Of a DNA stretch of 64,000 bases, positions 27,046-54,373 are shown piece after piece. Under the pieces are notes generated by a model. That model had not been told where the DNA came from. It made no database searches and worked only from the letters and a program-made list of their open reading frames with translations. How positions within the stretch are numbered: position 1 is the stretch's first letter; every line of letters starts with the position of its first letter. Made by a program: the position numbers and the translations under genes. The DNA is from Escherichia phage SUT_E420, in the sequence record OQ990039; one strand, given 5' to 3'.

Positions 27046-29460
27046 GTGTTCTCAATCCTACAAGGTCATGCAGGATTTCATCGCGATTTAGCCACAGGCA
27101 ATTGGCGAGAAGTTAAAGCAGAAGACTATCTTTTTGCTAAAAGATTTTCCTCAAAGCATCCTGAAGGTAAACCAGCTTCAATGCCCTTCAAGTTTGATGT
27201 AATTGATGAAGTTGATCCTCAAACCCTAGTAGAAATGCTTCCTCTTATGAGACGTTTAACGTCTGACCCTCATATCGTTGCGGTACGAGGTCGATGTCTT
27301 ACACCTAAAAATAATGTGCGACGTAAGAAGGGCAACTTTAATGTATCTAACCCAAGTCATATAATTGCAATGGACGTGGATGGTATTGTAGATACAGGTG
27401 GTTGCAACAAGTTTGATCTTGTTGGCATGGCTCGACATATTATTAGAATGTTAAATAGTATTAGTGAGGATATGTTTCCTCTTGATGCAGGGTTTATCGC
27501 TCATGCATCGTCTTCGGCTGGGCTNNNNNNNNNNNNNNNNNNNNNNNNNNNNNNNNNNNNNNNNNNNNNNNNNNNNNNNNNNNNNNNNNNNNNNNNNNNN
27601 NNNNNNNNNNNNNNNNNNNNNNNNATGTTAAATAGTATTAGTGAGGATATGTTTCCTCTTGATGCAGGGTTTATCGCTCATGCATCGTCTTCGGCTGGGC
27701 TAAAACCAGGTATCCGAATGCACTTAATACTAGAATCTAATGTTAAAGTAACTCAGGGTCAAATCAAATTCTTATTTACATCTATCAACGAAAGTAGTAG
27801 ACAAAAGTATGGCTTTGATATTGCCGACTTAGCTTATTACTCTTCCGTACAGCTCCACTATTTTGCAGATCCGTTATTTACCGATGGTATAGTAGATCCG
27901 TTTAAAGCGGAGGGTGCTTCACGTCTGGTATTTGTTAAGGGTTCTAAAGTAAATTTACCCAATAATCTGGTTGACTATGAAACAACTAGAGGTGAGTTTA
28001 AGGAGGAGTTTTACTCTTTACTCGATCAAATTAAAGGTAAAAAAGCTGCCTCTGATAAAGTAGAGGAAACTATCAGCGAACTAGAAGAAGCTGAGGATGG
28101 AGTGTATCTACGTATCATACCTAAACTCTATCACAGAGCCTTAGAGGATGGTGTTGATTTTGCATGGCTAGAAAAAGAAATCCGTCCAGCCTTATCAGAA
28201 TATATTGCAACTAAAGATAACAGTCGCAATATTCAAGATTACTTTAATAACGGTCGTAAACAGGCTCTGAAAGCATTTGTTAATAATTCTAAACGTGATA
28301 TACCTGATGTTTTAAAGGGTATTCCACTTAAAAAGCTAGAAACTAATTCTCTAGAAACTGATAACTTCTTGAAATTAAATACTGTACCACCAGAAGGTTA
28401 TATGACTTTTGTAAAAGCAAGTCTAGGTACAGGTAAAACTACAGCGGTTGTGCGTTGGTTAGATTCAGGAGTTATTAAAGGTAATTTCTTAGCAATTACC
28501 AATACTAGAGCACTGGTATCTTCAAATGCCAAGAAATTTAGTGCAGGACAATATGATAAGTCTGTAGATATGCTTAATTTTAAGCGGGGTGCTATTGACC
28601 GTATGTCCACAACTATTCACTCTTTGCATAAATTCAAGAGTTTTATTGGTCAAATTGATGCAATCTTTATCGATGAATGTGATGCAGTAATGAATGACCT
28701 ATTATTCGCCCCGGTTGTTAAACAACGTCGCGAGTGTATTCAGGTTCTTCGGGATATTCTTGCAACTGCAAAAATCATTATATTATCTGATGGGGATATT
28801 AGTGCAGAAACAATTGAAGCATATGGTTCTTTGATTGAGTTTGATAAACCAGTAGCATTTTATAACCATCACCGTAAAATGCTATCAAAAGCTCATGCTT
28901 ATGAGTTCCCGGATGAATCCAGTATTTGGGTTGCACTTCAGACTTCTCTAGAGATGGGTGAGAAATCTATCCTAGTATCTGACTGTGGGCCGGATGAACT
29001 GAATGAGAAGGGTATGGCATTGCGTCGTAATACGGGTGCGTTAGTTAAGGAAATCCACTCAAANNNNNNNNNNNNNNNNNNNNNNNNNNNNNNNNNNNNN
29101 NNNNNNNNNNNNNNNNNNNNNNNNNNNNNNNNNNNNNNNNNNNNNNNNNNNNNNNNNNNNNNNGATATTAAGAAGTGTTCAAATGTCACTATCAAACCAT
29201 TCATAGAAGCTCTGAAAGGTAAGAAGAAAGATTTCTTCCTTAAAACAGGTCAGAGTGCTAACCCAAAATATGCCAGAATGTATCTTGGTATGATGGGTAT
29301 TGGTAAGGATATGAACACTGAAAATATTGTAGACTGGTACAGAACCTATTGTAAAATCGAGTGTATGCCAATCCCCTATAAGTTTATGACTGATGAGGAG
29401 AAACATATGCATGATGAAGCAATGGCAGAGCTAGGTGCTAGAAATGACAGTGAAGAATAA
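27046..29460 (+). CDS. large P-loop ATPase/helicase-like replication protein, putative origin-binding protein (interrupted by two gaps)
   Basis: Walker A LGTGKTT and Walker B IFIDECD; start set at GTG 27046 with ribosome-binding site ACAGGAG; gap at 27525-27624 is a duplication artefact, gap at 29064-29163 hides real sequence. Confidence 0.5.
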   Translation: MFSILQGHAGFHRDLATGNWREVKAEDYLFAKRFSSKHPEGKPASMPFKFDVIDEVDPQTLVEMLPLMRRLTSDPHIVAVRGRCLTPKNNVRRKKGNFNVSNPSHIIAMDVDGIVDTGGCNKFDLVGMARHIIRMLNSISEDMFPLDAGFIAHASSSAGXXXXXXXXXXXXXXXXXXXXXXXXXXXXXXXXXXMLNSISEDMFPLDAGFIAHASSSAGLKPGIRMHLILESNVKVTQGQIKFLFTSINESSRQKYGFDIADLAYYSSVQLHYFADPLFTDGIVDPFKAEGASRLVFVKGSKVNLPNNLVDYETTRGEFKEEFYSLLDQIKGKKAASDKVEETISELEEAEDGVYLRIIPKLYHRALEDGVDFAWLEKEIRPALSEYIATKDNSRNIQDYFNNGRKQALKAFVNNSKRDIPDVLKGIPLKKLETNSLETDNFLKLNTVPPEGYMTFVKASLGTGKTTAVVRWLDSGVIKGNFLAITNTRALVSSNAKKFSAGQYDKSVDMLNFKRGAIDRMSTTIHSLHKFKSFIGQIDAIFIDECDAVMNDLLFAPVVKQRRECIQVLRDILATAKIIILSDGDISAETIEAYGSLIEFDKPVAFYNHHRKMLSKAHAYEFPDESSIWVALQTSLEMGEKSILVSDCGPDELNEKGMALRRNTGALVKEIHSXXXXXXXXXXXXXXXXXXXXXXXXXXXXXXXXXXDIKKCSNVTIKPFIEALKGKKKDFFLKTGQSANPKYARMYLGMMGIGKDMNTENIVDWYRTYCKIECMPIPYKFMTDEEKHMHDEAMAELGARNDSEE
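27525..27624. other. assembly gap (100 N) flanked by identical 77-bp copies
   Basis: 27448-27524 is identical to 27625-27701; adds 59 artefactual codons to the ORF. Confidence 0.85.
29064..29163. other. assembly gap (100 N) without flanking duplication
   Basis: Flanks differ, so the true missing length is unknown. Confidence 0.8.
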
Positions 29461-37468: not shown

Positions 37469-39661
37469 TTGAAAATCGCAGTAGTTGATAAAGCTCTAAA
37501 TAACACTCGTTACGATAAACATTTCCAGCTATACGGCGAGGAAGTTGATGTATTTCATATGTGTAACGAGAAGTTATCTGGTCGTTTGCTTAAAAAGCAC
37601 ATTACTATTGGAACACCAGAAAATCCATTTGATCCGAATGATTACGATTTTGTTATACTAGTAGGTGCTGAACCTTTCCTGTATTTCGCAGGTAAGAAAG
37701 GCATTGGTGACTATACTGGTAAACGTGTAGAATATAATGGATATGCTAACTGGATTGCAAGTATCAGCCCAGCCCAGTTACACTTTAAGCCTGAAATGAA
37801 ACCAGTTTTCGATGCAACAGTAGAGAATATCCACGATATTATCAATGGTCGTGAAAAGATTGCAAAAGCTGGTGATTACCGTCCTATTACTGACCCTGAT
37901 GAGGCGGAAGAATATATCAAGATGGTGTATAATATGGTTATCGGACCTGTCGCATTCGACTCCGAAACCTCAGCACTATACTGTCGAGATGGTTATCTGC
38001 TTGGTGTTTCTATATCTCACCAAGAGTATCAGGGTGTATATATCGATTCTGATTGTCTCACAGAGGTTGCAGTATATTATCTCCAGAAAATTCTGGATAG
38101 TGAAAACCACACTATTGTTTTTCACAACTTGAAGTTTGATATGCACTTTTATAAGTACCATCTGGGACTTACTTTTGATAAAGCACATAAAGAACGCAGG
38201 CTCCATGATACAATGTTGCAGCATTATGTTCTAGATGAGCGTCGTGGTACTCATGGCTTGAAATCTCTAGCAATGAAGTATACCGATATGGGTGACTATG
38301 ACTTTGAACTAGATAAGTTCAAAGATGATTACTGCAAAGCACATAAAATCAAGAAAGAAGATTTCACCTATGATTTAATTCCGTTTGATATTATGTGGCC
38401 TTACGCTGCAAAAGATACCGATGCCACCATACGCTTGCACAACTTCTTCTTACCAAAAATTGAGAAGAATGAAAAACTTTGCAGTCTGTATTATGATGTT
38501 CTAATGCCTGGTTGTGTATTTCTCCAGCGTGTTGAGGATCGTGGTGTACCNNNNNNNNNNNNNNNNNNNNNNNNNNNNNNNNNNNNNNNNNNNNNNNNNN
38601 NNNNNNNNNNNNNNNNNNNNNNNNNNNNNNNNNNNNNNNNNNNNNNNNNNGGGTATCGTGTAATCGCATGGGACTTAACAACTGCGGAAGTTTATTATGC
38701 TGCTGTTCTATCTGGGGATAGAAATATGCAACAGGTATTTATCAATATGAGAAATGAACCTGATAAATACCCGGACTTCCACTCTAACATCGCACACATG
38801 GTATTTAAACTCCAATGCGAGCCTCGTGATGTTAAAAAGTTATTCCCAGCTCTGCGTCAGGCTGCTAAGGCAATTACCTTCGGTATTTTGTATGGTTCTG
38901 GCCCAGCTAAAGTAGCTCATTCTGTTAACGAAGCTCTTCTGGAACAGGCTGCTAAGACAGGAGAACCGTTTGTTGAATGTACTGTTGCGGATGCGAAGGA
39001 CTATATCGAAACTTACTTCGGTCAGTTCCCACAGCTTAAGCGTTGGATTGATAAGTGCCACGATCAGATTAAGAATCATGGATTTATCTATAGTCACTTT
39101 GGTCGTAAGCGTCGTCTGCACAATATCCACTCCGAAGACCGTGGTGTTCAGGGTGAAGAAATTCGTTCTGGATTTAACGCAATCATTCAGTCTGCTTCCT
39201 CTGATAGCCTCCTTTTAGGTGCTGTAGATGCAGATAATGAGATCATTTCTCTTGGCCTAGAACAAGAGATGAAGATTGTTATGCTGGTTCATGACTCCGT
39301 GGTTGCTATTGTTCGTGAGGATTTGATCGACCAATACAATGAAATCCTGATTCGTAATATTCAGAAAGACCGTGGTATCAGTATTCCTGGCTGTCCGATT
39401 GGTATTGATTCAGATTCTGAAGCTGGAGGTTCTCGTGACTATTCTTGTGGTAAGATGAAGAAACAGCACCCATCAATCGCTTGTATTGATGATGATGAAT
39501 ATACTCGTTATGTCAAGAGTGTATTACTTGATGCAGAGTTCGAGTATAAGAAACTAGCTGCAATGGATAAAGAGCATCCAGATCATAGCAAATACAAGGA
39601 TGATAAGTTTATTGCTGTATGTAAAGATTTGGATAACGTAAGAAGGATTCTCGGTGCTTGA
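37469..39661 (+). CDS. DNA polymerase, family A (internal assembly gap)
   Basis: TTG start; 3'-5' exonuclease motifs (FDSETSAL, YAAKDTD) before the gap; motif A-like WDLTTAEVYYAA, motif B RQAAKAITFGILYGSG and motif C LVHDS after it; palm/thumb region missing at 38551-38650. Confidence 0.85.
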   Translation: MKIAVVDKALNNTRYDKHFQLYGEEVDVFHMCNEKLSGRLLKKHITIGTPENPFDPNDYDFVILVGAEPFLYFAGKKGIGDYTGKRVEYNGYANWIASISPAQLHFKPEMKPVFDATVENIHDIINGREKIAKAGDYRPITDPDEAEEYIKMVYNMVIGPVAFDSETSALYCRDGYLLGVSISHQEYQGVYIDSDCLTEVAVYYLQKILDSENHTIVFHNLKFDMHFYKYHLGLTFDKAHKERRLHDTMLQHYVLDERRGTHGLKSLAMKYTDMGDYDFELDKFKDDYCKAHKIKKEDFTYDLIPFDIMWPYAAKDTDATIRLHNFFLPKIEKNEKLCSLYYDVLMPGCVFLQRVEDRGVXXXXXXXXXXXXXXXXXXXXXXXXXXXXXXXXXXGYRVIAWDLTTAEVYYAAVLSGDRNMQQVFINMRNEPDKYPDFHSNIAHMVFKLQCEPRDVKKLFPALRQAAKAITFGILYGSGPAKVAHSVNEALLEQAAKTGEPFVECTVADAKDYIETYFGQFPQLKRWIDKCHDQIKNHGFIYSHFGRKRRLHNIHSEDRGVQGEEIRSGFNAIIQSASSDSLLLGAVDADNEIISLGLEQEMKIVMLVHDSVVAIVREDLIDQYNEILIRNIQKDRGISIPGCPIGIDSDSEAGGSRDYSCGKMKKQHPSIACIDDDEYTRYVKSVLLDAEFEYKKLAAMDKEHPDHSKYKDDKFIAVCKDLDNVRRILGA
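38551..38650. other. assembly gap (100 N) without flanking duplication, inside the DNA polymerase gene
   Basis: Flanks differ; motif spacing implies roughly 150 missing residues. Confidence 0.8.
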
Positions 39662-42796: not shown

Positions 42797-42896
42797 NNNN
42801 NNNNNNNNNNNNNNNNNNNNNNNNNNNNNNNNNNNNNNNNNNNNNNNNNNNNNNNNNNNNNNNNNNNNNNNNNNNNNNNNNNNNNNNNNNNNNNNN
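42797..42896. other. assembly gap (100 N) flanked by identical 77-bp copies
   Basis: 42720-42796 is identical to 42897-42973. Confidence 0.85.
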
Positions 42897-42984: not shown

Positions 42985-44139
42985 ATGAGAATATTATTTA
43001 GTGCTGATCATCATATCAAACTAGGACAAGATAAAGTTCCAAAGGAATGGCAGAAGCGTCGCTTCCTGATGCTAGGAGAACGGTTAAATGATATATTCCA
43101 TAATCATAACTGTGATCTTCATATTGCTGGTGGTGATATACTTGATGTTGCCGACCCGTCGTCAGAAGAAATAGAACTGCTTGAACAGTTCATGTCAAGA
43201 CTTGACCATCCAGGCAAAATCTTTACTGGAAATCATGAAATGTTAACGAAAACCATTTCATGTCTATATCATTATGCAGGAGTTATTAATAAAGTAACGA
43301 GTGGTAAGTGGGAAGTAATTACCAAACCATATCGTTCCCCTGAATTTGATATTGTTCCATATGACGAAATCCATAAATCTAAGTGGAAACCATCTGAATC
43401 AAAACTATGTTTCACGCATGTTCGTGGTGAAATCCCTCCACATGTAAAACCAGANNNNNNNNNNNNNNNNNNNNNNNNNNNNNNNNNNNNNNNNNNNNNN
43501 NNNNNNNNNNNNNNNNNNNNNNNNNNNNNNNNNNNNNNNNNNNNNNNNNNNNNNTCTAAGTGGAAACCATCTGAATCAAAACTATGTTTCACGCATGTTC
43601 GTGGTGAAATCCCTCCACATGTAAAACCAGAAATTGATCTAACTAAGTACAACTGTTATGATACTGTAATTGCTGGCGATTTACATTCTTATACTAATAG
43701 CCAGACTATCGGATCTACTAGACTCCTCTACCCAGGGTCTCCATTAACTACATCGTTCCATAGAGAACGCACAAAAGGTACAAATGGTTGCTTTATCGTT
43801 GATACCGACACATTAAAAGTAGAATGGATTGAACTCGGTGATTTACCACAACTGATTCGTAAAACAATCGGAGCTGGTGAAGAGATGGAACCTAGTGATT
43901 ATGATCGTGTAGTCTATGAAGTTACTGGTGACGTTGTTCAATTAAAGTCTATCAAAGACTCTGATTTATTAGATAAGAAGATTAACCATCGAGTTACTAA
44001 AGACGCTAAGTTAAATCTTGTTGATCTTGATATGTTAGGCGAACTTGAACTTTACTTCCGTGAAGTTGAGAAGCTATCTCAAGGCGACATTGATAGAATC
44101 TTGGCTAGAGCTGCGAAATATGTCAAAGATTACAATTAA
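42985..44139 (+). CDS. SbcD/Mre11-like nuclease (T5 D12-like)
   Basis: Calcineurin-like phosphoesterase motifs (ILFSADHH, GGDILD, FTGNHE); ORF contains the duplication artefact at 43455-43554. Confidence 0.75.
   Translation: MRILFSADHHIKLGQDKVPKEWQKRRFLMLGERLNDIFHNHNCDLHIAGGDILDVADPSSEEIELLEQFMSRLDHPGKIFTGNHEMLTKTISCLYHYAGVINKVTSGKWEVITKPYRSPEFDIVPYDEIHKSKWKPSESKLCFTHVRGEIPPHVKPXXXXXXXXXXXXXXXXXXXXXXXXXXXXXXXXXXSKWKPSESKLCFTHVRGEIPPHVKPEIDLTKYNCYDTVIAGDLHSYTNSQTIGSTRLLYPGSPLTTSFHRERTKGTNGCFIVDTDTLKVEWIELGDLPQLIRKTIGAGEEMEPSDYDRVVYEVTGDVVQLKSIKDSDLLDKKINHRVTKDAKLNLVDLDMLGELELYFREVEKLSQGDIDRILARAAKYVKDYN
43455..43554. other. assembly gap (100 N) flanked by identical 77-bp copies
   Basis: 43378-43454 is identical to 43555-43631. 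Confidence 0.85.
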
Positions 44140-46489
44140 GACACTAAAATTTAGTAACGTTATGTCTTACGGTAAGGACATCGTAATTCATNNNNNNNNN
44201 NNNNNNNNNNNNNNNNNNNNNNNNNNNNNNNNNNNNNNNNNNNNNNNNNNNNNNNNNNNNNNNNNNNNNNNNNNNNNNNNNNNNNNNNNNNGAAATATGT
44301 CAAAGATTACAATTAAGACACTAAAATTTAGTAACGTTATGTCTTACGGTAAGGACATCGTAATTCATCTCGATAAGAATCCCGTTACTCAACTAATCGG
44401 GGGCAATGGGCTAGGGAAATCTACAATTGCTACTGTTATTGAAGAACTATTCTATAATAAGAACTCACGCGGTATTAAGAAAGATGCTCTGTTCTCTTGG
44501 TCTTCTCCGAAAAAAGAATACGATATGCACGCTTATTTCTCGAAAGATGAGGATGAGTATGAACTGCATAAAGTAGTTAAGTCAACTGCTAAAGTAACTC
44601 TTATTAAGAATGGGGAAGATATTAGTGGACACACGGCAACCCAAACATACAAGATGATTGAAGAAATTATGGGTGGTGACTTCCAAACATTCACCAAACT
44701 GATTTATCAATCGGTGGGCTCCAATCTAGACTTTCTAAAAGCAACGGATGCAACACGTAAGGCTTTTCTTGTTAACTTGTTCAATCAAGAACAGTATAAA
44801 GAAATGTCAGAAACTATTAAGGCNNNNNNNNNNNNNNNNNNNNNNNNNNNNNNNNNNNNNNNNNNNNNNNNNNNNNNNNNNNNNNNNNNNNNNNNNNNNN
44901 NNNNNNNNNNNNNNNNNNNNNNNGATGCAACACGTAAGGCTTTTCTTGTTAACTTGTTCAATCAAGAACAGTATAAAGAAATGTCAGAAACTATTAAGGC
45001 TGACCGTAAAGAAATAGCAAATACCTTAAACAATTTGCAAGGCCAAATGGCTGTAATTACGAAAATCCTTAATGGAAAGAATAATCTAGGAACTCTACAG
45101 GAACCTGTAGAAGTACCGGAGTTTGATGAAGAACCATTAGCACAAGAACTTACTGAATCGAAAATTAAGGCGGCATTAGCCAAGTCTCAAGAGGCTAATA
45201 TTACTAAATTGCGTAATTTGGACAAAGCTGTACAAGTTGCCGAACAATCTTTCGAACCTTTCAAAAATTTACCCGCGCCCACCGACCAAAACGAAGAGAT
45301 CTCAAGTGTTACGCGTGACCTAACGATTGTGACCTCACGTGCTGGTGAAGTTAAGAAACGTTATCAGAAGTTCAAGCAAGAGGCTTCAAATACTGAATGT
45401 CCTACTTGTGGTACTCATCTGGATACAACTGCCGCTCAAAAAGCAATGGATATGGCTAGAACAGAATATGATCCTCTGTTCAAAGAGAAGCAATCTCTTG
45501 AAGCTAAGCTAGAACAGTTGAGGAAAGAACAACTTGAGTACGTTGCGTATATTAGAGCAAAGGATGCCTTGGATAAAGCAGTGGTAGCTAGGGACGAGTT
45601 CAAAAATTCAATGAGTGATGCTTCTTTTGAAGAACTCAATGTGCAAATCCTACAGGTGCAAATCCGACAATTAGAACAGGAAATCGCTGATGGNNNNNNN
45701 NNNNNNNNNNNNNNNNNNNNNNNNNNNNNNNNNNNNNNNNNNNNNNNNNNNNNNNNNNNNNNNNNNNNNNNNNNNNNNNNNNNNNNNNNNNNNGATGCTT
45801 CTTTTGAAGAACTCAATGTGCAAATCCTACAGGTGCAAATCCGACAATTAGAACAGGAAATCGCTGATGGACGTTCTAAGGTTGCAATTGCCAAAGAGCA
45901 TAATGCAAATGTCGAATTAGCCAATGCAAAATATAAAGCGAAACTAGAACAGATTGAGAAAGCTGAAGCAGAAATGTCCGAGATTACTTCCAAATTAAAT
46001 GAAGTATCAGAAGCTGTTGCTGATCTCGATATTCTGATTGCTGCATTGAAGAATTTAGTAGGATATAAACTAGAGCATAGTGTGAAAGTATTTGAAGAAC
46101 TAATTAATAAATACCTTTCTATTATGACTGGCGGTAAATTCGCACTTGGATTTGAACTTGATGAAACAAAATTACAAGTAGTAATCTTCAATGATGGAAA
46201 TCGTACCAGTATGGAGAACTGCTCTACTGGTCAACAGAGTCGAATTAACCTAGCAACCCTGTTAGCTATTCGGATGCTGTTAACATCTATTAGTAAAGTT
46301 AATATTAATCTTCTATTCCTTGATGAAGTAATTAGCTTTATTGATACGAAAGGACTTGACACTCTTGTTGAATTATTAAACGAGGAAGAAAGTCTAAATT
46401 CTATCATTGTTTCTCATGGGCATACGCATCCACTAGCTCATAAGATTACTGTCAAAAAAGATGCAGAAGGATTTTCCTACTTAGAATAA
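44119..46489 (+). CDS. SbcC/Rad50-like ATPase (T5 D13-like)
   Basis: Start at MSKITIKTLKF; Walker A GGNGLGKST, long central coiled coil, C-terminal signature/Walker B region (LLFLDEV); three duplication artefacts inflate the track ORF by about 177 aa. Confidence 0.7.
44192..44291. other. assembly gap (100 N) flanked by identical 77-bp copies
   Basis: 44115-44191 is identical to 44292-44368. Confidence 0.85.
44824..44923. other. assembly gap (100 N) flanked by identical 77-bp copies
   Basis: 44747-44823 is identical to 44924-45000. Confidence 0.85.
45694..45793. other. assembly gap (100 N) flanked by identical 77-bp copies
   Basis: 45617-45693 is identical to 45794-45870. Confidence 0.85.
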
Positions 46490-46492
46490 AAC

Positions 46493-47152
46493 ATGGCTGT
46501 AGATAGTAGAGAGAAAGGTAAACGTGGTGAATATCAGGTAAGAGATATTCTACGTGAGCGTACAGGTCTTGAGTGGGAACGTGTTCCTGGCTCTGGTGCT
46601 TTTGGCCAGAGCCACGGACTGAAAGGTGACATCTACCTTCCACCACAAAGCGGACACATTAGTAAATACTGCTTCGAAGTTAAGTGGTANNNNNNNNNNN
46701 NNNNNNNNNNNNNNNNNNNNNNNNNNNNNNNNNNNNNNNNNNNNNNNNNNNNNNNNNNNNNNNNNNNNNNNNNNNNNNNNNNNNNNNNNCACGGACTGAA
46801 AGGTGACATCTACCTTCCACCACAAAGCGGACACATTAGTAAATACTGCTTCGAAGTTAAGTGGTATAAAGATGATAATATATCAAGTAATTTATTTAAT
46901 GTTGGTGAATCCACTCTAGAGAAGTGGTGGCAGCAGTGCTCACGTGAAGGTGAGCAGATGAACTCCAAACCTGCATTAATATTCAAAAAAGACAGAGGAC
47001 AGTGGTTAATAGCTTTGGATAGCTCAGACCCAATGGTTGACAACTTAATGAGTCGTACCCATATGGTGTTAAATAAGAAAGACATGGAAATCGTAATTGG
47101 TTTATTTGAACCGTGGCTACATCATGCATCTGTTGAGGACTTAATTAAATAA
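46493..47152 (+). CDS. PD-(D/E)xK-type nuclease-like protein (T5 D14-like)
   Basis: GDIY...FEVKW resembles a PD-(D/E)xK core; contains one duplication artefact (true length about 160 aa). Confidence 0.45.
   Translation: MAVDSREKGKRGEYQVRDILRERTGLEWERVPGSGAFGQSHGLKGDIYLPPQSGHISKYCFEVKWXXXXXXXXXXXXXXXXXXXXXXXXXXXXXXXXXXHGLKGDIYLPPQSGHISKYCFEVKWYKDDNISSNLFNVGESTLEKWWQQCSREGEQMNSKPALIFKKDRGQWLIALDSSDPMVDNLMSRTHMVLNKKDMEIVIGLFEPWLHHASVEDLIK
46690..46789. other. assembly gap (100 N) flanked by identical 77-bp copies
   Basis: 46613-46689 is identical to 46790-46866. Confidence 0.85.
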
Positions 47153-48204
47153 TGAGTAAATCCTGGGGAAAATTTATTGAAGAAGAGGAAGCTGAAATGG
47201 CTTCCCGTCGTAACCTAATGATTGTCGATGGAACTAACTTAGGCTTTCGCTTCAAACATAANNNNNNNNNNNNNNNNNNNNNNNNNNNNNNNNNNNNNNN
47301 NNNNNNNNNNNNNNNNNNNNNNNNNNNNNNNNNNNNNNNNNNNNNNNNNNNNNNNNNNNNNGAGGAAGCTGAAATGGCTTCCCGTCGTAACCTAATGATT
47401 GTCGATGGAACTAACTTAGGCTTTCGCTTCAAACATAACAACAGTAAAAAACCATTTGCCTCAAGTTATGTTTCCACTATTCAGTCTCTAGCAAAATCTT
47501 ATTCTGCTAGAACTACAATAGTTTTAGGAGATAAGGGGAAGTCTGCATTCCGCTTAGAGCATTTACCTGAGTATAAGGGTAATCGAGATGAGAAATACTC
47601 TCAGCGTACGGAAGAGGAGAAAGCGTTAGATGAGCAGTTCTTCGAGTATTTGAAAGATGCTTTCGAGTTATGTGAAACTACATTCCCAACTTTCACTATT
47701 CGGGGTGTAGAAGCAGATGATATGGCAGCTTATATTGTTAAACTGATCGGGCATCTATATGATCACGTTTGGCTGATTTCTACTGATGGTGACTGGGATA
47801 CTTTATTAACTGATAAAGTATCTCGCTTCTCTTTCACAACACGTCGTGAATACCATCTTCGTGATATGTATGAGCATCATAATGTTGACGATGTAGAGCA
47901 GTTTATCTCCCTGAAAGCAATTATGGGTGATTTAGGGGATAATATCCGAGGTGTTGAAGGTATTGGGGCAAAGCGCGGGTATAATATTATTCGTGAATTT
48001 GGTAACGTTCTGGATATTATTGATCAGCTTCCACTGCCTGGAAAACAGAAATATATACAGAATTTAAATGCTTCGGAAGAATTGCTTTATCGAAACCTAA
48101 TTCTGGTTGATTTACCTACCTACTGTGTGGATGCTATTGCTGCTGTAGGTCAAGATGTATTAGATAAATTTACAAAAGATATTTTGGAGATTGCAGAACA
48201 ATGA
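47152..48204 (+). CDS. flap endonuclease / 5'-3' exonuclease (T5 D15-like)
   Basis: After removing the duplication artefact the product is 291 aa; N-terminus MSKSWGKFIEEEEAEMASRRNLMIVDGTNLGFRFKH matches T5 exonuclease as recalled; acidic active-site clusters (VEADD, STDGDWD). Confidence 0.9.
   Translation: MSKSWGKFIEEEEAEMASRRNLMIVDGTNLGFRFKHXXXXXXXXXXXXXXXXXXXXXXXXXXXXXXXXXXEEAEMASRRNLMIVDGTNLGFRFKHNNSKKPFASSYVSTIQSLAKSYSARTTIVLGDKGKSAFRLEHLPEYKGNRDEKYSQRTEEEKALDEQFFEYLKDAFELCETTFPTFTIRGVEADDMAAYIVKLIGHLYDHVWLISTDGDWDTLLTDKVSRFSFTTRREYHLRDMYEHHNVDDVEQFISLKAIMGDLGDNIRGVEGIGAKRGYNIIREFGNVLDIIDQLPLPGKQKYIQNLNASEELLYRNLILVDLPTYCVDAIAAVGQDVLDKFTKDILEIAEQ
47262..47361. other. assembly gap (100 N) flanked by identical 77-bp copies
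   Basis: 47185-47261 is identical to 47362-47438. Confidence 0.85.
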
Positions 48205-48647
48205 TTAAAATTAAATTAACTCATCCAGATTGTATGCCTAAGATTGGTTCCGAAGATGCCGCAGGTATGGATCTGCGAGCATTCTTTGGTACTAATCCTG
48301 CCGCAGACTTACGCGCTATTGCACCAGGCAAATCTCTTATGATTGACACCGGTGTCGCGGTAGAAATTCCGCGAGGTTGGTTCGGTTTGGTAGTTCCTCG
48401 TAGTTCTTTAGGTAAACGCCATTTGATGATTGCAAATACCGCAGGAGTGATTGACTCAGACTATCGTGGAACTATTAAGATGAATCTGTTTAACTACGGT
48501 TCTGAAATTCAAACTCTGGAGAATTTTGAAAGACTTTGTCAGCTAGTAGTAGTACCACACTACTCAACTCATAATTTTGAAATCGTTGACGAACTAGGGG
48601 AGACTGATCGTGGGGAAGGTGGATTTGGAAGTTCAGGAAGCAAATAA
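48201..48647 (+). CDS. dut: dUTP diphosphatase
   Basis: 148 aa; dUTPase motifs (AAGMDLRA, GVIDSDYRG) and C-terminal Gly-rich tail. Confidence 0.85.
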   Translation: MIKIKLTHPDCMPKIGSEDAAGMDLRAFFGTNPAADLRAIAPGKSLMIDTGVAVEIPRGWFGLVVPRSSLGKRHLMIANTAGVIDSDYRGTIKMNLFNYGSEIQTLENFERLCQLVVVPHYSTHNFEIVDELGETDRGEGGFGSSGSK

Positions 48648-48873
48648 TTTTACTGATCCTAATATGATAGGTATTGATACTAATATGTTAACTTATCAGA
48701 TTAAAACTGCTGAACCAGAAACGTTTGTGCTAAAAACAGATAAAGAAGGTAATGTTACTTTCTGGGACCCTGAAGGTTTTGTAGAGCTTTGTACTAATAC
48801 GGATAATGAGCATTTAAAACTACTATTAGCTATTTATAATCTTGGTATTATAGAAGGTTGTAGAAGCAAGTAA
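48610..48873 (+). CDS. hypothetical protein (87 aa)
   Basis: ORF overlapping the dut end; last gene of the rightward block. Confidence 0.3.
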   Translation: MGKVDLEVQEANNFTDPNMIGIDTNMLTYQIKTAEPETFVLKTDKEGNVTFWDPEGFVELCTNTDNEHLKLLLAIYNLGIIEGCRSK

Positions 48874-48881
48874 TAGAAAAA

Positions 48882-48914
48882 CCCCGGTGGATTTTGTCCA
48901 CCGGGGTTTCTTTG
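48882..48914. terminator. bidirectional rho-independent terminator
   Basis: 10-bp stem CCCCGGTGGA/TCCACCGGGG with A-run upstream and T-run downstream, between the convergent dut block and the tail-fibre gene. Confidence 0.7.
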
Positions 48915-48929
48915 TACTATGTATATGTA

Positions 48930-51698
48930 CTATGAGTTATCTGGCTTAATAAGCTCGCTAACAAGTTTCTTCAGTTCGGTTAATTCTTGCTCAAGTTTGT
49001 TAACTTTATCAGCTTGATAACGAAATGCGCAAGCTAGATCTGCCATAATGACGTTGTTATCAAGTGCTAATGTGTCATCTGCTTTGTCAACAACAATTTG
49101 GCGGTCTACATATTCTTCACCGTCATCGTTAACACCTATAACATCTGCAAAAATATCTCCACCAGGAATTAATTTTACATATTCCGGGTCTATTTTTAGA
49201 AGGTCTTGGGCTATTAAGCCAAATCGCTGTATGTTGCTTCCATTGTATTTAAACATTGTCGGAAGCCACTGCATAACGCGATCATAGCTTTCTTTTCCAT
49301 CTGTATAGATTATATCGTGCTTTAAATCTCTGTCAGAGTTAGCGGCCTTTTGAAAAATGAAGTTTCCATTTGATGACCATGTGGTTATATCGTTTGAGGC
49401 TGGTTGAAACTGGAAGTTACAGAAAAAATTACCATCACCACGAAGTCTTAACGAGCAAAAAGGCCAAGCATTATTTCCCTGTGGGATAAGACCCCAAGTT
49501 GCACGAATTGGATAACCACCAGTTGATTGTGTACCCCATGAAAGGCCAGGCGCCCATCCACCATCATTGTTAGGAATAATCTCGCCCCAAACAAGAGCAT
49601 TACCCCAATAGTTAGGATCATCCCAGCCCATTTGTTGGGTTTTGCCAGTGTATTGAGCAGAATGAGTTCTGCCGTCAGGGTAAAACTTGTGCATATAGGA
49701 CTGTATCCCTGCTTGATACAATTCTATTCCAAAAGATTCAACGTGTGTGTCGCCTCTTCTGATTAAACCAGCGATAGCGTAATCGTCATACCAGTTGTAA
49801 CGACTTACACCAGTCCATGTGTTTATTGGTGGATTCATGATTGAGAATAGTTGTGACGCATTGCGTTCATTCCCGTCTGCATAAATACCAGCCCCAGGAG
49901 CTAAGGAAATACTTTTCGCTCCCGAAAAAGTACCATTTTCATTAAACTGATAATACTGTGCTAACCCATTATGAAATACGCCTATTGTATGCTTTCCTAC
50001 GCCTACTTGAGTCTCAAAATACGACTGAGAAGAACCAATATCTTCGCCTTGGGTATTCTTTAGTTTTGAATGGTATATACCTGCGTTTGCAGTAACTGCA
50101 TTTTCCGTTTCATTTTCAACATTAAGACTAAGGAACTTTGGCGCATGTTTCTCACCAAGCCCTATATTATTTCTGATACCATTCGCATCCTTAGCACCTG
50201 TACCACCAAATTGAATACCTAGTGGTAGCCATTGATCGGTGGTAGCATCATAAACGCCCCAATGATCCCCGTCAGCTGGAATGGTTAGATACTTGTTTTT
50301 ATTTGGAGAATATAAAACTGTTTCTACAGAATTCTGAAACAGCCTATCAACTCCTAAATTATATCTAGCACCTTCAGGAGTATCTGCTCCTGTACCCCCA
50401 GCCGCAGTTGATAATGGAAGAGTTTCCCATGAAATTCCGTCACCTGTTGCATTTCTCTGAAGTACAATAAGACCATCATCTCTAATAACAAATCTATATA
50501 ATCTATTATGTGAATATAAAAAAGTATGAACCCCATCTTGCACAAGTGAGTCTATAAGGAGTGTCTGACGAGAAGCATTGATATCCAACAGATCTGAAAG
50601 ATTATTTTCTTTTAATAACGATTTACTAATGATACCTTCAGCTTTTCCAGCAGCCACTTCCGCGCGCCCAGCGTCTGTAGATGCGCTTTGTGCGCTACCA
50701 GCAGCATTGCTAGCTTGTTGTCCTGCTTCGATAGCGCTATTGCTTGCTTGTGCAGCGGAAGCAGCAGCAGCATCTTTTAGCGTGGTAGTTTCGGACACAG
50801 CAGCGTCCTTAATTCCCTGTGTGTCTATTTTTAGCTGCTCAACGTCTGATTTTAAAGCTACTGTCTCTGCTACTGCAGTATCCTTAATACCTTGTGTATC
50901 TATTTTTAGCTGTTCAACATCTGATTTTAAGCCTTGAATAGTAGTTACTGATTGGCTAGCTGAGGCTGCGGAATGGGCTGCATTGGTTTCACTAGTTTTT
51001 GCATTGGTTTCACTAGTTTTTGCATTGGTTTCACTAGCTTTTGCATTAGTTTCCGAGGTTTTTGCAGCGGATGCTGATGCGGCGGCTTGTGCAGAGAATA
51101 TTTCTGCCCCATCTCTATAGCCTTTAGAATCCGAAGCAGAAGCAGCAGCATTAGTTTCACTAGCCTTTGCCTTATCTTCACTAGTCTTTGCTGCAATAGC
51201 AGAAGCAGCAGCATTAGTTTCACTAGCCTTTGCCTTATCTTCGCTAGCCTTTGCATTAGTCTCACTAGTTTTTGCGTTAGTCTCACTAGTTTTTGCATTA
51301 GTTTCACTAGCCTTTGCCTTATCTTCGCTAGTTTTAGCATTAGTCTCAGATATTTTAGCTGCAGCTGCTGATTCCTCCGATTTAGTAGCTGATGCAGCAG
51401 ATTGAGTAGCAGATGTAGCGGACTGAGTGGCAGAGGCTTCAGAAGCTCCAGCAGAAATAGCAGCTTCCTGTTCAGAGTTCTTAGCATTAAGCTCCGAAGT
51501 TTTAGCCGCTATCTCAGAATCTTTTGCAGCTGCAGCAGACTTAGCTGCAGCCTCAATAGAAGATACTAACTCACTTGCAGTAATAGAGCTAATAGAATTA
51601 CCTAGAGTTACTGTATATCTAGGAAACTTACTAGCAGTAGCTTTAGTATCATCAATATTTAATATTTGTTGTACAATAATTTTAGTAGTTACTGCCAT
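48930..51698 (-). CDS. L-shaped tail fibre protein (pb1/Ltf-like) with C-terminal intramolecular chaperone domain
   Basis: 922 aa; N-terminal Ala/Ser/Thr-rich heptad repeats (KTSETNA/KASEDKA); C-terminal region (DLKHDIIYTDGKESYDRVMQWLP...GLIAQDL) resembles the self-cleaving chaperone of tail fibres. Confidence 0.7.
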   Translation of the reverse strand: MAVTTKIIVQQILNIDDTKATASKFPRYTVTLGNSISSITASELVSSIEAAAKSAAAAKDSEIAAKTSELNAKNSEQEAAISAGASEASATQSATSATQSAASATKSEESAAAAKISETNAKTSEDKAKASETNAKTSETNAKTSETNAKASEDKAKASETNAAASAIAAKTSEDKAKASETNAAASASDSKGYRDGAEIFSAQAAASASAAKTSETNAKASETNAKTSETNAKTSETNAAHSAASASQSVTTIQGLKSDVEQLKIDTQGIKDTAVAETVALKSDVEQLKIDTQGIKDAAVSETTTLKDAAAASAAQASNSAIEAGQQASNAAGSAQSASTDAGRAEVAAGKAEGIISKSLLKENNLSDLLDINASRQTLLIDSLVQDGVHTFLYSHNRLYRFVIRDDGLIVLQRNATGDGISWETLPLSTAAGGTGADTPEGARYNLGVDRLFQNSVETVLYSPNKNKYLTIPADGDHWGVYDATTDQWLPLGIQFGGTGAKDANGIRNNIGLGEKHAPKFLSLNVENETENAVTANAGIYHSKLKNTQGEDIGSSQSYFETQVGVGKHTIGVFHNGLAQYYQFNENGTFSGAKSISLAPGAGIYADGNERNASQLFSIMNPPINTWTGVSRYNWYDDYAIAGLIRRGDTHVESFGIELYQAGIQSYMHKFYPDGRTHSAQYTGKTQQMGWDDPNYWGNALVWGEIIPNNDGGWAPGLSWGTQSTGGYPIRATWGLIPQGNNAWPFCSLRLRGDGNFFCNFQFQPASNDITTWSSNGNFIFQKAANSDRDLKHDIIYTDGKESYDRVMQWLPTMFKYNGSNIQRFGLIAQDLLKIDPEYVKLIPGGDIFADVIGVNDDGEEYVDRQIVVDKADDTLALDNNVIMADLACAFRYQADKVNKLEQELTELKKLVSELIKPDNS
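50978..51350. repeat. tandem 21-bp/42-bp repeats encoding heptad repeats of the tail-fibre shaft
   Basis: Four near-identical copies of GCATTGGTTTCACTAGTTTTT at 50978-51062 and related 42-bp units to about 51350. Confidence 0.75.
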
Positions 51699-52120
51699 TA
51701 TTTAGTTACCCCATCACTGATAAATACTTTACCCTCCATTATACGAAAGGAGCTAATTGCAGATCCTATAACATCTCTAGTCATAATTATATCATAGTAT
51801 CCTGCGAATCGCTGACGAGGGTTATATTTATCTCTATCTTTAGATGCTCTAGCCCCTATATTTTCCACAGATTCTACTGGCAAACTTATAGCTACAGCCC
51901 CTTGAGCAGCATCAATAATATTAGTAGTAAAGGATGCTAATATCTCCGCATTCTCATCTAGGCTATTTTTTATAGTACCCCTTAGAGAATACCCGGTTAA
52001 GTTAACGGGGGTATTTGTAGGTGGATAAGTACTATCATCAACATCTAAGAACTGCATCATTAAACCATATGGTACTTTCTCATCTATTACTAAATCTATA
52101 ACTCTATTTTCAGTACTCAT
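51698..52120 (-). CDS. tail collar protein (T5 p132-like)
   Basis: 140 aa, between the pb4-like gene and the tail fibre; size and position match T5 p132 from memory. Confidence 0.45.
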
Positions 52121-52123
52121 TAT

Positions 52124-54373
52124 TTACCTTATATGGATGTACCCGTTTTGCAGGTCTATCTTCATTCTGTAATAGGCTTCCGGATTATCAGATAATGCAG
52201 CGTTTCTATCATAAATAACGTTAACACCGATCTGAGATAAGAAGGCATTATTTGCTACAATCTTACTGGCGGTTACCGTACCATTAACTATCATATCGCC
52301 ATGCAGTACCATTGCTGGGTTAACCCAACCGGAACCATTCCATTGACGAGTAAATGCAGATTGCGGAGCATTACTATTAAACTCTGTCAATACATCATAT
52401 CTAACTGGAGGACTACCAAAGTTATTCTGGAAGAAGGCATTAGCCTGCCCATCATCCCAACCACCAAGACCAGGAATACCTAAGGAATACATTCCAGGAC
52501 CACGTTGTCCATCATGTCCTATAGTACCTTCAGTACCACTCCACTGAACTACATCAGACCAGCTAGTACCTGCAAGTAGCTTATTAGTAACTGGGTCAAG
52601 TGTACCCGTAGTCGCATAGATATTTTGTGTCATATCTGTACGATTAGGTGGAGTTTTTGACCAACCAGGAGGCGGATAATCTTGTTCTAGTGGCTTTGCT
52701 GGAAGTGCAGTTGATATCTTATAAACAAATACTGTTTGCTTGCCCTGTATACCTGTTTGGATATCTACATCGCCATTTGGTGTTCCAATTACTACTCCAC
52801 TAGAAATACGTAGTACATCACCATCATAACGAATCCACTGTGTGGCATTACCAATGTCTAACTTAGCTTTGGCAGAGGTATTATCCATGCCCATCCAAAT
52901 ACCGGAGTTATTATCCCCCCAAGATTTACCTTGAGTGTAAATTGCTGGATTATCCTTACCGGATAAGTTAGTCATGATAAAATTCGCAGCATTAATATCT
53001 CTAGTAATTACTTTACCATCAACGTTAACAACACGGTTTATAGGATCAAAAGAAATAGGTGCTTTTCCCTCTTCATCTAGCAGACCAATGTTAATAGCAC
53101 CAGTAGCTGCATCGATTAAGAATGTCTGTCTCCAGATTTCTCCATCTTTCATGCTGCCCTTAATAAAGGCATAGTTAACATCAATACCAGTCTCATTGAC
53201 AAAGCTGTTATCTAGAGGAGTATCTTCATTCAATATAAATGTTACAGGAGCTGATTCTGTTATATCTTGTTTATTTGGTCCCCAGGCAATTGATGATACC
53301 TTAAAGGTATGTTCAACTTTCCATGGGAATGATATAATTGTTGCAGCTCTGGCAGCACCAACGTTTATCTTTTGAGCTTTAGCCCAGCCAGTCTTAGCGT
53401 ATTCTTCAGAATTTATATATGTAACCAAGAACTCACGAACATTAGCACCACCACCGCGTTCCCAATCCCACTCAATTCTAACATCATATCGTTCTTTACC
53501 ATCAGCAATTCGTGCAGCTTTAAAAACAATATTGATAGGTGCAGTAGGAGGAACAAAATTATAAGCTACTGTTAAAATATTAGGGAATTCATAGTACCCA
53601 GAAGAATCAACTGTAACACCATCAGGCATAGTTACTTGACCAGATATTCTGATCTTATAATCTCCGATAGGAACTCCACCAAATTTAATAGTAGAACCTA
53701 AAGCCCCAATGTAATACTTAGTCCAAGGACTGTCTTCAGTAGCTGTACTTTTTAACTCAATAGTACAGTAGCTTGCTTCACCAGTTGTTTCTACGACAAC
53801 TATCGGTGCACCTACCCCAACATCCACAGGTTCTGATTCAGATCTTGCTGCAACAATTATTGGCTTCTCTTTTGTCCTAAAGTTAGTCTCATTAGAGAGA
53901 TTGATACCAATCTTAGCCTCTAGCAGTTCAGAATCAATAATAGAGTCGTAGAAAGCCCCTTGAATCTCGTAAGAGGTTGAAGGGGTCAGGTTATTAATCA
54001 TTATGAAGAAAGTATCTATACCAGTATAATCACGTCTATCTATACTTTCTCCTGTCTTTAACCAAAAAGATCTACCAATAANNNNNNNNNNNNNNNNNNN
54101 NNNNNNNNNNNNNNNNNNNNNNNNNNNNNNNNNNNNNNNNNNNNNNNNNNNNNNNNNNNNNNNNNNNNNNNNNNNNNNNNNGAAGAAAGTATCTATACCA
54201 GTATAATCACGTCTATCTATACTTTCTCCTGTCTTTAACCAAAAAGATCTACCAATAACGTCATAGTCAGTATATATAGAGTGCTGGACATATGCCATTG
54301 TATATCCAGTCATTATACTATTTAAGACCATTTTGGCTGGTGCATTATTCGAAATCATTAAATGGATGCCCAC
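52124..54373 (-). CDS. baseplate/tail tip protein (T5 pb4-like)
   Basis: Large structural ORF downstream of the pb3-like gene; contains the duplication artefact at 54082-54181 (true length about 690 aa). Confidence 0.5.
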   Translation of the reverse strand: MGIHLMISNNAPAKMVLNSIMTGYTMAYVQHSIYTDYDVIGRSFWLKTGESIDRRDYTGIDTFFXXXXXXXXXXXXXXXXXXXXXXXXXXXXXXXXXXIGRSFWLKTGESIDRRDYTGIDTFFIMINNLTPSTSYEIQGAFYDSIIDSELLEAKIGINLSNETNFRTKEKPIIVAARSESEPVDVGVGAPIVVVETTGEASYCTIELKSTATEDSPWTKYYIGALGSTIKFGGVPIGDYKIRISGQVTMPDGVTVDSSGYYEFPNILTVAYNFVPPTAPINIVFKAARIADGKERYDVRIEWDWERGGGANVREFLVTYINSEEYAKTGWAKAQKINVGAARAATIISFPWKVEHTFKVSSIAWGPNKQDITESAPVTFILNEDTPLDNSFVNETGIDVNYAFIKGSMKDGEIWRQTFLIDAATGAINIGLLDEEGKAPISFDPINRVVNVDGKVITRDINAANFIMTNLSGKDNPAIYTQGKSWGDNNSGIWMGMDNTSAKAKLDIGNATQWIRYDGDVLRISSGVVIGTPNGDVDIQTGIQGKQTVFVYKISTALPAKPLEQDYPPPGWSKTPPNRTDMTQNIYATTGTLDPVTNKLLAGTSWSDVVQWSGTEGTIGHDGQRGPGMYSLGIPGLGGWDDGQANAFFQNNFGSPPVRYDVLTEFNSNAPQSAFTRQWNGSGWVNPAMVLHGDMIVNGTVTASKIVANNAFLSQIGVNVIYDRNAALSDNPEAYYRMKIDLQNGYIHIR
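54082..54181. other. assembly gap (100 N) flanked by identical 77-bp copies
   Basis: 54005-54081 is identical to 54182-54258. Confidence 0.85.

Follow-up and report, generated by a model that had tools for sequence, protein, structure and literature searches.

The open reading frame at 48930..51698 (minus strand) of the 64,000-nucleotide window analysed here, a stretch of the genome of Escherichia phage SUT_E420 (OQ990039), had been called a tail-fibre gene with a repetitive shaft in an initial annotation, which raises the questions of which fibre it encodes and how its repeats behave among related phages. The frame begins with ATG, encodes 922 aa, and its start codon overlaps the stop codon of the gene upstream (TAATG). 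The product matched PHROG tail-fibre families (best E 6e-242), and near-identical genes in Tequintavirus records are annotated as tail fibre. The coding sequences of Escherichia phages SUT_E1520 and SUT_E520 were 100% identical to this gene, and those of T5_ev212 and EC148 were 99.9% and 99.7% identical, respectively. The two ORFs upstream carry a Pfam LtfC domain and four PB4 domains. The former ORF (51698..52120, minus strand; 140 aa; E 1.6e-14), named p132 or collar protein in relatives, is the predicted attachment partner of the fibre. The gene, ltf, thus directly follows ltfC/p132 and pb4 as part of the tail-tip module of Markadamsvirinae, and it occupies the same genomic slot as T5 pb1. 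The order flap endonuclease, dut, 87-aa gene, terminator, ltf, ltfC and pb4 is as in T5, and the ltf-ltfC-pb4 side is likewise found in SUT_E1520. The terminator is a predicted bidirectional intrinsic hairpin (48877..48911; 15-bp stem with 8 GC pairs) between the ltf stop codon and the convergent 87-aa gene; at the syntenic position, the T5 record carries an annotated 'efficient bidirectional rho-independent terminator'. A promoter scan gave 11 candidates against 10.8 expected from shuffles, and hence no excess. The fibre of DT57C is branched and includes LtfB as a second protein, whereas this locus holds no second ltf gene and is adjoined by the terminator and the convergent gene. The 922-aa ORF, the synteny, the PHROG matches and the near-identical annotated coding sequences bear out the assignment to a tail fibre, and the ORF is very probably the only lateral (L-shaped) tail-fibre gene carried by a T5-like siphophage (Tequintavirus), with a coiled-coil shaft, a distal tip and a self-cleaving chaperone.

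The N-terminal region contains a collar-anchor domain homologous to those of T5 pb1 and DT57C LtfA. DT57C LtfA (PDB 8HQZ chain d, 1076 aa), the closest solved relative of the N-terminus, matched aa 1-196 (8hqz_d, E 1.5e-34), and T5 pb1 aligned with aa 1-227 only (52% identity, E 1e-31, BLASTP), including the SETNAK heptads. In the cryo-EM structure of DT57C, strands formed by the N-terminal residues of LtfA lie within the LtfC ring, and T40 marks the start of the trimerising helix of a three-helix coiled coil (PMC10713586). The match to both proteins marks aa 1-40 (51579..51698, minus strand) as the putative anchor for the LtfC/p132 collar. These first ca. 40 residues, over which the AF2 monomer model was disordered, would run as beta-strands into the dodecameric collar of LtfC/p132, much like the collar strands of LtfA, and the predicted helix start at aa 41 compares with residue 40 in DT57C.

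In the shaft (aa 41-359), a homologue of the DT57C LtfA coiled coil, two long helices were predicted by AF2, at aa 41-188 (51135..51578, minus strand) and aa 196-359 (50622..51113, minus strand). They are separated by a non-helical stretch with pLDDT <50, SDSKGYR (aa 189-195, 51114..51134, minus strand), which is a predicted helix break and a possible hinge; the relatives S133 and DT57C LtfA likewise contain a G[YF]RD motif. In the first helix, Ala is typical of heptad position 3 and Ser of position 6. A run of 28 consecutive heptads in the protein had these residues in 23/28 and 26/28 cases, respectively. The 3.5-residue periodicity of the first helix was strong (z=15-23), a level reached by 0/2000 shuffles. 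Over the whole of aa 196-359, the heptad periodicity was not significant, probably owing to register shifts caused by 25-aa and 11-aa units. The AF2 helix from aa 41 and the strong periodicity are compatible with a coiled coil from about residue 40, the model being that of a monomer and blind to oligomeric state. By analogy with the DT57C cryo-EM structure, we infer that three chains form one fibre, whose shaft core would consist of Ala/Ser heptads, interrupted once at the predicted break (aa 189-195).

At the opposite end, the C-terminal chaperone domain named in the initial annotation was confirmed as an intramolecular chaperone of the Peptidase_S74 type (aa 788-922, 48933..49337, minus strand; 135 aa). 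PF13884 matched aa 788-842 with 33.0 bits against a cut-off of 22, over profile positions 1-58 of 58. The T5 chaperone, of the same type and 133 aa long, uses a Ser1264/Lys1269 dyad (PMC4690869). Its S-x4-K spacing equals that of Ser788 (codon 49335-49337) and Lys793 (codon 49320-49322) in the present protein, and S788, D789 and K793 were invariant in 44 homologues, so the catalytic residues, the absence of which would have spoken against a chaperone, are in place. A PDB search with the last 164 aa (E<=10) retrieved a weak DT57C LtfA match only and neither T5 pb1 nor K1F chains; the case for the catalytic residues is therefore based on the match to the Pfam profile, on agreement with the motif as published and on the invariance among homologues. 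T5 Asp1239, Arg1250 and Thr1263, which lie upstream and complete the catalytic site, had no equivalents mappable by sequence. In this type of chaperone, autoproteolytic release follows folding, and upstream Asp/Arg sensor residues are contributed to the active site by a neighbouring chain. The K1F endosialidase chaperone, the founding member of Peptidase_S74, belongs to the same Pfam family, and the Ser...Lys autocleavage motif is as described for K1F and T5 (PMC4690869), but the passenger here is a fibre tip and not a sialidase. A C-terminal helix was predicted by AF2 at aa ~881-917 (residues 523-559 of the modelled fragment). Through this helix the chaperone would trimerise and template the folding of the tip, and after folding, the Ser788/Lys793 dyad would cut the predicted scissile bond Asn787|Ser788. 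Autocleavage of the fibre protein is suggested by analogy with the known chaperones, and the mature product, of 787 aa, probably ends at Asn787.

Between shaft and chaperone lies a distal region (aa 360-787, 49338..50621, minus strand), beta-rich in the AF2 model, with an NLSDL motif and two GGTGA...NLG/NIG motifs. It would fold into small beta domains and a beta-rich receptor-binding tip, putatively at aa ~540-780 (pLDDT 83-93), for which the monomer model showed no convincing match to solved structures. BLASTP detected no similarity to T5 pb1 beyond aa 227, and the region from aa 228 to the chaperone was unrelated to pb1 by both BLASTP and phmmer. The middle and distal regions of DT57C LtfA are likewise unrelated to this fibre, a weak match over the S74 domain excepted. 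T5 pb1 had been given as about 1,400 aa, which is right (T5 ltf, 4191 nt = 1396 aa), and it is 474 aa longer than the present fibre. Its oligomannose-binding bullet domain was detected neither by BLASTP nor in the PDB search, which gave no pb1 chain matches; receptor specificity is thus expected to differ from that of T5. With only aa 1-227 aligning to pb1 (52% identity), the proposal that the fibre is a distinct host-range determinant gains support at the level of sequence. The bullet domain defines the specificity of T5 and not the fibre family.

Fibres resembling the distal region together with the chaperone were found in other siphophages and in prophages, namely in Hanrivervirus (Salmonella phage slyngel, recorded as Drexlerviridae/Hanrivervirus; 731 aa, ~86% aa identity), Seuratvirus ('Aeromonas phage SD04'; 827 aa, ~89%) and E. 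coli prophages (814 aa, ~80%), with an overall range of 78-89% at the protein level. The distal modules were 88-92% identical in DNA over ~1.2-1.9 kb. In contrast, the N-terminal attachment domains of these fibres differ, the Seuratvirus type having PF08400 ('prophage tail fibre N-terminal') in place of an anchor of the T5 type, and so do virion context and genome (~50 kb, ~60 kb and chromosomal prophage, respectively). The distal half is probably a cassette that unrelated lineages of siphophages have passed between one another by horizontal exchange. For Markadamsvirinae, the lateral fibres are reported to recognise specific O-antigens, to be dispensable on K-12 and to show conservation at the N-terminus alone (PMC8594841). 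The ligand of the present tip is most likely a surface glycan of the O-antigen type, to which it would bind reversibly and so speed up adsorption before pb5 engages the outer-membrane receptor. Since the isolation hosts of phages with this allele include rough K-12, O157:H7, ECOR4 and Salmonella, no host pattern points to one glycan.

The shaft repeats had been described as near-perfect 21/42-bp repeats at 50978-51350. They are real, and the 21-bp units do encode heptads as proposed (AK[TA]SE[TD][NK] type), but they do not form a single near-perfect block: there are two arrays with 68-91% matches, separated by ~70 nt of non-repeat sequence (SDSKGYRDGAEIFSAQAAASAS), and only array 2 and the 63-bp copy in array 1 are near-perfect. 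Array 1 (aa 117-188, 51135..51350, minus strand) comprises ca. 10 units with 42- and 63-bp higher-order copies; TRF reported it at about 51135-51348 with period 21, 9.3 copies and 68% matches, rising to 81% at period 42 and to 96% over 1.9 copies at period 63. Array 2 (aa 211-240, 50979..51068, minus strand) comprises four AK[TA]SETN units (TRF: 50979-51066, period 21, 4.2 copies, 91% matches). The longest exact direct repeat within ltf was 45 nt, of which ~3e-21 would be expected by chance. The duplicated segment reported earlier was also recovered: LKSDVEQLKIDTQGIKD is present twice (aa 257-273 and 282-298), each time as part of a 25-aa unit with 8 further residues, in a tandem duplication at aa 257-306 (50781..50930, minus strand). 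The two copies (50856-50930 and 50781-50855) were identical at 57/75 nt, and at 45/51 nt across the 17 identical residues. Since they have diverged at synonymous sites, the duplication appears to be old and stably maintained.

Before the repeats are interpreted, it has to be asked whether the arrays were mis-assembled, in which case the copy number would merely reflect collapse or expansion during short-read assembly and the length of 922 aa would not be real. The window is a scaffold of short-read contigs with 12 runs of 100 N, 10 of which are flanked by 77-nt duplications, and in P0002 (873 aa), a related contig from Logan, exactly 147 nt are missing between two copies that have a 32-nt exact repeat in common, just as an assembler with k=31 would collapse the array. 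However, ltf lies inside one uninterrupted 6720-nt piece. The gene was also exactly 2769 nt long in six phage records with 93-100% identity (SUT_E1520, SUT_E520, T5_ev212, EC148, MM-1 and Elw), representing five phages, four laboratories and four countries; EC148 was assembled with a different assembler from 250-bp reads, which span a whole array. Because the assembly overlap of 77 nt exceeds the longest exact repeat (45 nt) and the six records agree in length, an artefact of the kind feared in the initial annotation is highly improbable. We rejected P0002 as a case of live copy-number variation, since its 147-nt deletion joins the copies that share the 32-nt repeat in a k=31 Logan assembly. 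Taking the repeat number as real, one may then suppose a true contingency locus, at which high-frequency copy-number change in phage populations tunes fibre length or antigenicity, and the earlier wording 'VNTR-like' and prone to slippage leaned this way. Every unit is in frame and a multiple of 21 nt, and relatives have gained, lost or converted whole units: VEc33 has +7 aa and +11 aa, with one extra heptad unit in array 2, MET_P1 has +11 aa, OSYSP has +36 and +11 aa, with a third copy of the 25-aa unit, and in EC148 one heptad is converted, 8/10 of its differences falling within 22 nt. Measured from the N-terminus to the NLSDL motif, shaft length varies between 352 and 416 aa across those T5-type fibres that have a similar tip. 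Nevertheless, the unit-sized in-frame indels (7, 11 and 36 aa) were seen only at ~89% identity, and copy number was constant in all records with >=93% identity, P0002, probably an assembly artefact, being the sole length variant among close relatives. The units are moreover imperfect (68-91% identity), which lowers slippage rates, and the 25-aa duplication is old. Neither near-identical units throughout nor copy-number polymorphism among close isolates was thus found, and a contingency locus is unlikely. Since only the more distant relatives differ by in-frame units, the unit-sized variation stands and the rapid dynamics do not: the repeats would drive a slow change in shaft length. As the 21-bp repeats encode whole heptads, slippage, the presumed mechanism, or unequal recombination would add, remove or convert units while sparing the reading frame and the coiled-coil register, giving a slow shaft-length polymorphism among relatives.

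The repeat region also contains a 180-aa ORF in the +1 alternative frame (50945..51487, minus strand). That it is a real overlapping gene might be argued from its frame, which spans 187 codons between stops and is kept open by all relatives down to 89% identity, and from a 'hypothetical protein' coding sequence in Salmonella phage SA001; the SA001 annotation coincides, however, with a frameshift-fragmented ltf. Composition alone explains the open frame, which persisted in 18% of resamplings in which the ltf protein was recoded with synonymous codons. Substitutions relative to OSYSP were 52 synonymous and 21 non-synonymous in the ltf frame but 6 and 64 in the alternative frame, and the product, of low complexity (LVKLMQK repeats), had no match in a PHROG search. 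The ORF is therefore spurious and a by-product of the repeats, as had been stated, and an overlapping gene is extremely improbable. As for the tip, the distal region might act enzymatically, as a depolymerase of the tailspike kind, and not only bind, considering that endosialidases and other depolymerases are also matured by S74 chaperones (Pfam 'Chaperone of endosialidase') and that aa 95-155 of the shaft resemble N-terminal segments of the solved phage depolymerases 7vyv and 7lzj (E ~1e-3). The latter matches are restricted to the low-complexity Ala/Ser shaft, though, no enzymatic Pfam domain was found in aa 360-787 at E<=0.01, and no enzymatic activity is known for the nearest T5-type fibre tip of characterised structure (PMC4690869). 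A depolymerase is thus quite improbable, and a binding tip is the preferred reading.

The gene is of an ordinary and already known type, with identical copies already in GenBank, and its significance beyond correct annotation is small. The correct label is lateral tail fibre, where SUT_E1520 has 'hypothetical protein' and other records have 'tail tip protein', and the 180-aa ORF, already called in the public SA001 record, should be left uncalled. The repeats also provide a clean example for assembly quality control, with the array resolved at k=77 and apparently collapsed in a public contig at k=31. A more speculative and rather doubtful idea is that the heptad/hendecad arrays have been selected as a 'length dial' and recombination joint, with 7-, 11- or 25+11-residue steps adjusting how far the fibre reaches to the depth of the O-antigen or capsule layer on the host, while the shaft DNA offers homology for swapping distal modules among Tequintavirus, Hanrivervirus, Seuratvirus and prophages; if so, shaft length would shift by ~1-5 nm per step with the coiled-coil register undisturbed. 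The receptor-binding module itself circulates in at least four phage and prophage lineages, and knowing which glycan it binds would help to predict host range in several groups of biocontrol coliphages.

The 922-aa lateral fibre gene ltf (48930..51698, minus strand, as are all features of it described below) starts with an ATG that overlaps the stop codon of the 140-aa gene directly upstream (TAATG). This upstream gene, LtfC/p132, lies on the same strand and matches the LtfC family of Pfam; pb4, the straight-fibre protein, with four PB4 Pfam domains, is also encoded upstream on that strand. Downstream, a strong bidirectional terminator hairpin (48877-48911, both strands; 15-bp stem with 8 GC and T-runs on each strand) separates ltf from a convergent 87-aa gene, which is accompanied by dut and the flap endonuclease gene. 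The gene order downstream of ltf is the same in T5, and a bidirectional rho-independent terminator is annotated in the T5 record at the matching position. Since the locus is ordered as in T5 and the close DNA matches of ltf were all Tequintavirus genomes, the 922-aa protein is the lateral (L-shaped) tail fibre, homologous to T5 pb1 and DT57C LtfA. The locus carries only one ltf gene; therefore, the fibre is a single protein as in T5, unlike the branched fibre of DT57C (PMC4728585). In the T5 RefSeq record (NC_005859, 8056-8480), the collar protein p132 is split into two short CDS, T5.135 and T5.136, whereas LtfC is encoded by a single 140-aa gene in the window and in all relatives; according to the DT57C paper (PMC10713586), an erroneous frameshift in the T5 sequence accounts for the split.

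The N-terminal part of ltf matched DT57C LtfA (aa 1-196; PDB 8HQZ chain d, E 1.5e-34) and T5 pb1 (aa 1-227, 52% identity). In the cryo-EM structure of DT57C, the N-terminal residues of LtfA are beta-strands augmenting the LtfC sheets inside the collar, and a long helix from T40 enters a three-helix coiled coil projecting radially (PMC10713586). The ltf anchor (aa 1-40), assigned by homology to these two proteins, was disordered in an AF2 model of aa 1-360, in which the shaft (aa 41-359) was predicted as helices 41-188 and 196-359 with a low-confidence break at 189-195 (SDSKGYR). The initial annotation had described the shaft repeats as heptad-encoding, and this was borne out: aa 56-251 are 28 consecutive heptads in register, with Ala (23/28) or Ser (5/28) at position 3 and Ser (26/28) or Tyr or Phe (2/28) at position 6, and the core residues recur with a 3.5-residue periodicity (z=15-23) that 0 of 2000 shuffles reached. 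Tandem Repeats Finder placed the repeats, which are real, in two arrays rather than in one continuous block: array 2 at 50979-51066 (period 21, 4.2 copies, 91% matches) and array 1 at ca. 51135-51348 (period 21, 9.3 copies, 68% matches), with ca. 70 nt encoding SDSKGYRDGAEIFSAQAAASAS between them. Array 1 fits a period of 42 better (81% matches), and a higher-order copy of 63 bp better still (96%). Thus, "near-perfect" holds for part of the repeats only, and its extent is the sole qualification to a description confirmed overall. Since the non-tandem aa 41-113 also showed significant 3.5-residue periodicity (z=8.5), the tandem DNA repeats represent the stretch of a longer coiled coil with an Ala/Ser core that was homogenised most recently. 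The same SETNAK heptads occur in T5 pb1 and Epseptimavirus S133, and the shaft segment was matched by many tail-fibre PHROGs. The internal duplication is present as well: LKSDVEQLKIDTQGIKD occurs twice, at aa 257-273 and aa 282-298, each copy heading a 25-aa unit (7+7+11) in which, on direct reading, Leu, Val and Ile stand at alternating 3-/4-residue spacing with one stutter per unit. The two unit copies show 18 differences in 75 nt, yet share 17 identical residues; this indicates that the duplication is old and has been maintained by selection, rather than having arisen by recent slippage.

The copy number of the repeats could have been an assembly artefact, the more so as the window is a scaffold. 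It holds twelve runs of exactly 100 N (5911-6010, 27525-27624, 29064-29163, 38551-38650, 42797-42896, 43455-43554, 44192-44291, 44824-44923, 45694-45793, 46690-46789, 47262-47361 and 54082-54181), ten of them flanked by an exact 77-nt duplication, a pattern that marks joined k=77 contigs. Seven gaps are crowded within 42.8-47.4 kb, where the pieces are only 472-896 nt. A gap with its duplication spans 100+77 = 177 nt, exactly 59 codons, so that ORFs continue across the gaps and gain an X-run and a duplicated peptide; pb4, for example, is 749 aa in the window versus 685 aa in relatives, and the flap endonuclease is altered likewise. However, ltf lies wholly within one uninterrupted 6720-nt piece (47362-54081), and its longest exact direct repeat, at 45 nt (ca. 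3e-21 such expected by chance), is shorter than 77, so the assembly graph is unambiguous across the gene. The gene was also 100% identical in SUT_E1520 and SUT_E520 (Australia; 150-bp reads, SPAdes) and differed by 2 nt in T5_ev212 and by 10 nt in EC148 (Denmark; 250-bp reads, CLC), while its length was likewise exactly 2769 nt in MM-1 (Germany, 95% identity) and Elw (USA, 93%). The repeat number thus withstands the suspicion of collapse, and an artefact is rejected for this window. An MM-1-like phage in Logan contig ERR11439706_286 (k=31; 1501-4122), 99.8% identical over the 3' 2 kb, lacks exactly 147 nt (7 heptads) of ltf. The deletion joins two copies sharing a 32-nt exact repeat, and given the k=31 assembly it was not counted as biological variation; it is probably a k-mer collapse rather than a real loss of seven heptads.

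Length differences were found among more distant relatives. In VEc33, ltf carries an additional AKTSETN heptad and an additional 11-aa unit, both in frame; the 11-aa unit is also present in MET_P1_179_112 and, together with a further 36 aa (25+11), in OSYSP. Coiled coils tolerate indels of 7, 11 or 36 residues. Since all the in-frame indels were of these sizes, the repeats mediate changes in shaft length. Six phage records at 93-100% identity showed no difference in ltf length, and such change occurs only on a timescale of ca. 10% sequence divergence. Whole-unit, in-frame differences between relatives do exist, but "VNTR-like" implies faster change than these records show. Of the 10 differences in EC148, 8 fall within 22 nt (51234-51255; gene nt 444-465); through them, an AKASEDK heptad has become an AKTSETN heptad like its neighbour, a change that looks like gene conversion from one repeat unit to another inside the gene.

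The 180-aa ORF in the +1 frame of the same strand (50945..51487) exists and is spurious, as had been proposed. It had no PHROG match, and substitutions follow the ltf frame: codons differing from OSYSP were 52 synonymous and 21 non-synonymous in that frame versus 6 and 64 in the alternative one. Synonymous resampling of the ltf codons left the +1 frame open in 18% of trials. The ORF arises as a side effect of the Ala/Ser/Thr/Glu/Lys/Asn-rich repeat, in which few codons can create +1 stops. In Salmonella phage vB_SalS_SA001 (MN445182, 503-3315), it is annotated as a "hypothetical protein" (QKE54278), and frameshifts break ltf into three CDS.

The C-terminal domain (aa 788-922) covered the Pfam Peptidase_S74 profile in full (33 bits, cut-off 22). 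Its Ser788 and Lys793 are spaced as the catalytic Ser1264 and Lys1269 of T5 pb1 (PMC4690869), and the Ser, Asp and Lys of the motif were invariant in 44/44 homologues, down to ca. 36% identity, in agreement with the chaperone assignment made initially. The domain is 135 aa in ltf and 133 aa in T5. It ends in a long predicted helix, which matches the published S74 architecture ending in a trimeric coiled coil (PMC4690869). By homology, three ltf chains would trimerise, and the chaperone would nucleate folding of the tip from the C-terminus, then cleave the Asn787-Ser788 bond and leave; the mature 787-aa fibre would stay attached through its N-terminus to the LtfC collar.

The distal region between shaft and chaperone (aa 360-787) is predicted to be beta-rich. 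It contains one NLSDL and two GGTGA...NLG/NIG motifs, and the tip (aa ca. 540-780) was well predicted (pLDDT 83-93). No similarity to T5 pb1 was detected beyond aa 227, in line with the proposed distinct host-range determinant, and PDB searches found no pb1 chains. The distal half is instead shared with fibres of Hanrivervirus slyngel (Drexlerviridae, ca. 50 kb; 86% aa identity, with 88-92% nt identity over 1.2 kb), in those of the Seuratvirus "Aeromonas phage SD04" (Queuovirinae, ca. 60 kb; 89% aa identity), whose N-terminus is lambda-type PF08400, and in 814-aa proteins of E. coli chromosomal contigs (prophages; ca. 80%). The module was also present at 88-90% nt identity in "Campylobacter phage" records MG065643, MG065649, MG065657, MG065680 and MG065681 (49,946 bp). 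These host labels and that of SD04 (MH230177) are odd, the module otherwise occurring in E. coli, Salmonella and Shigella phages. Nt 1-600 of the MM-1 gene were 100% identical to the window and the rest 79-97%, suggesting a breakpoint for recombination close to array 2 and the 25-aa units; from these alignments, recombination inside ltf is visible even among the closest relatives. Lateral fibres of Markadamsvirinae are reported to bind one or a few O-antigen types as primary receptor and not to be essential on rough K-12, with conservation of their locus limited to the 5' end (PMC8594841). Phages with the present allele were isolated on K-12, W3110, O157:H7, ECOR4 and Salmonella Thompson.

Every feature of ltf has published precedent: the collar anchor and coiled coil in DT57C, the S74 chaperone with a Ser/Lys dyad in T5 and K1F, and the variable distal module in the BASEL studies. 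Public records already hold identical sequences, most of them with a tail-fibre annotation. The observation is correct but ordinary, and ltf fits the well-known scheme in which an anchor conserved within its lineage is joined to a receptor cassette that is exchanged horizontally.
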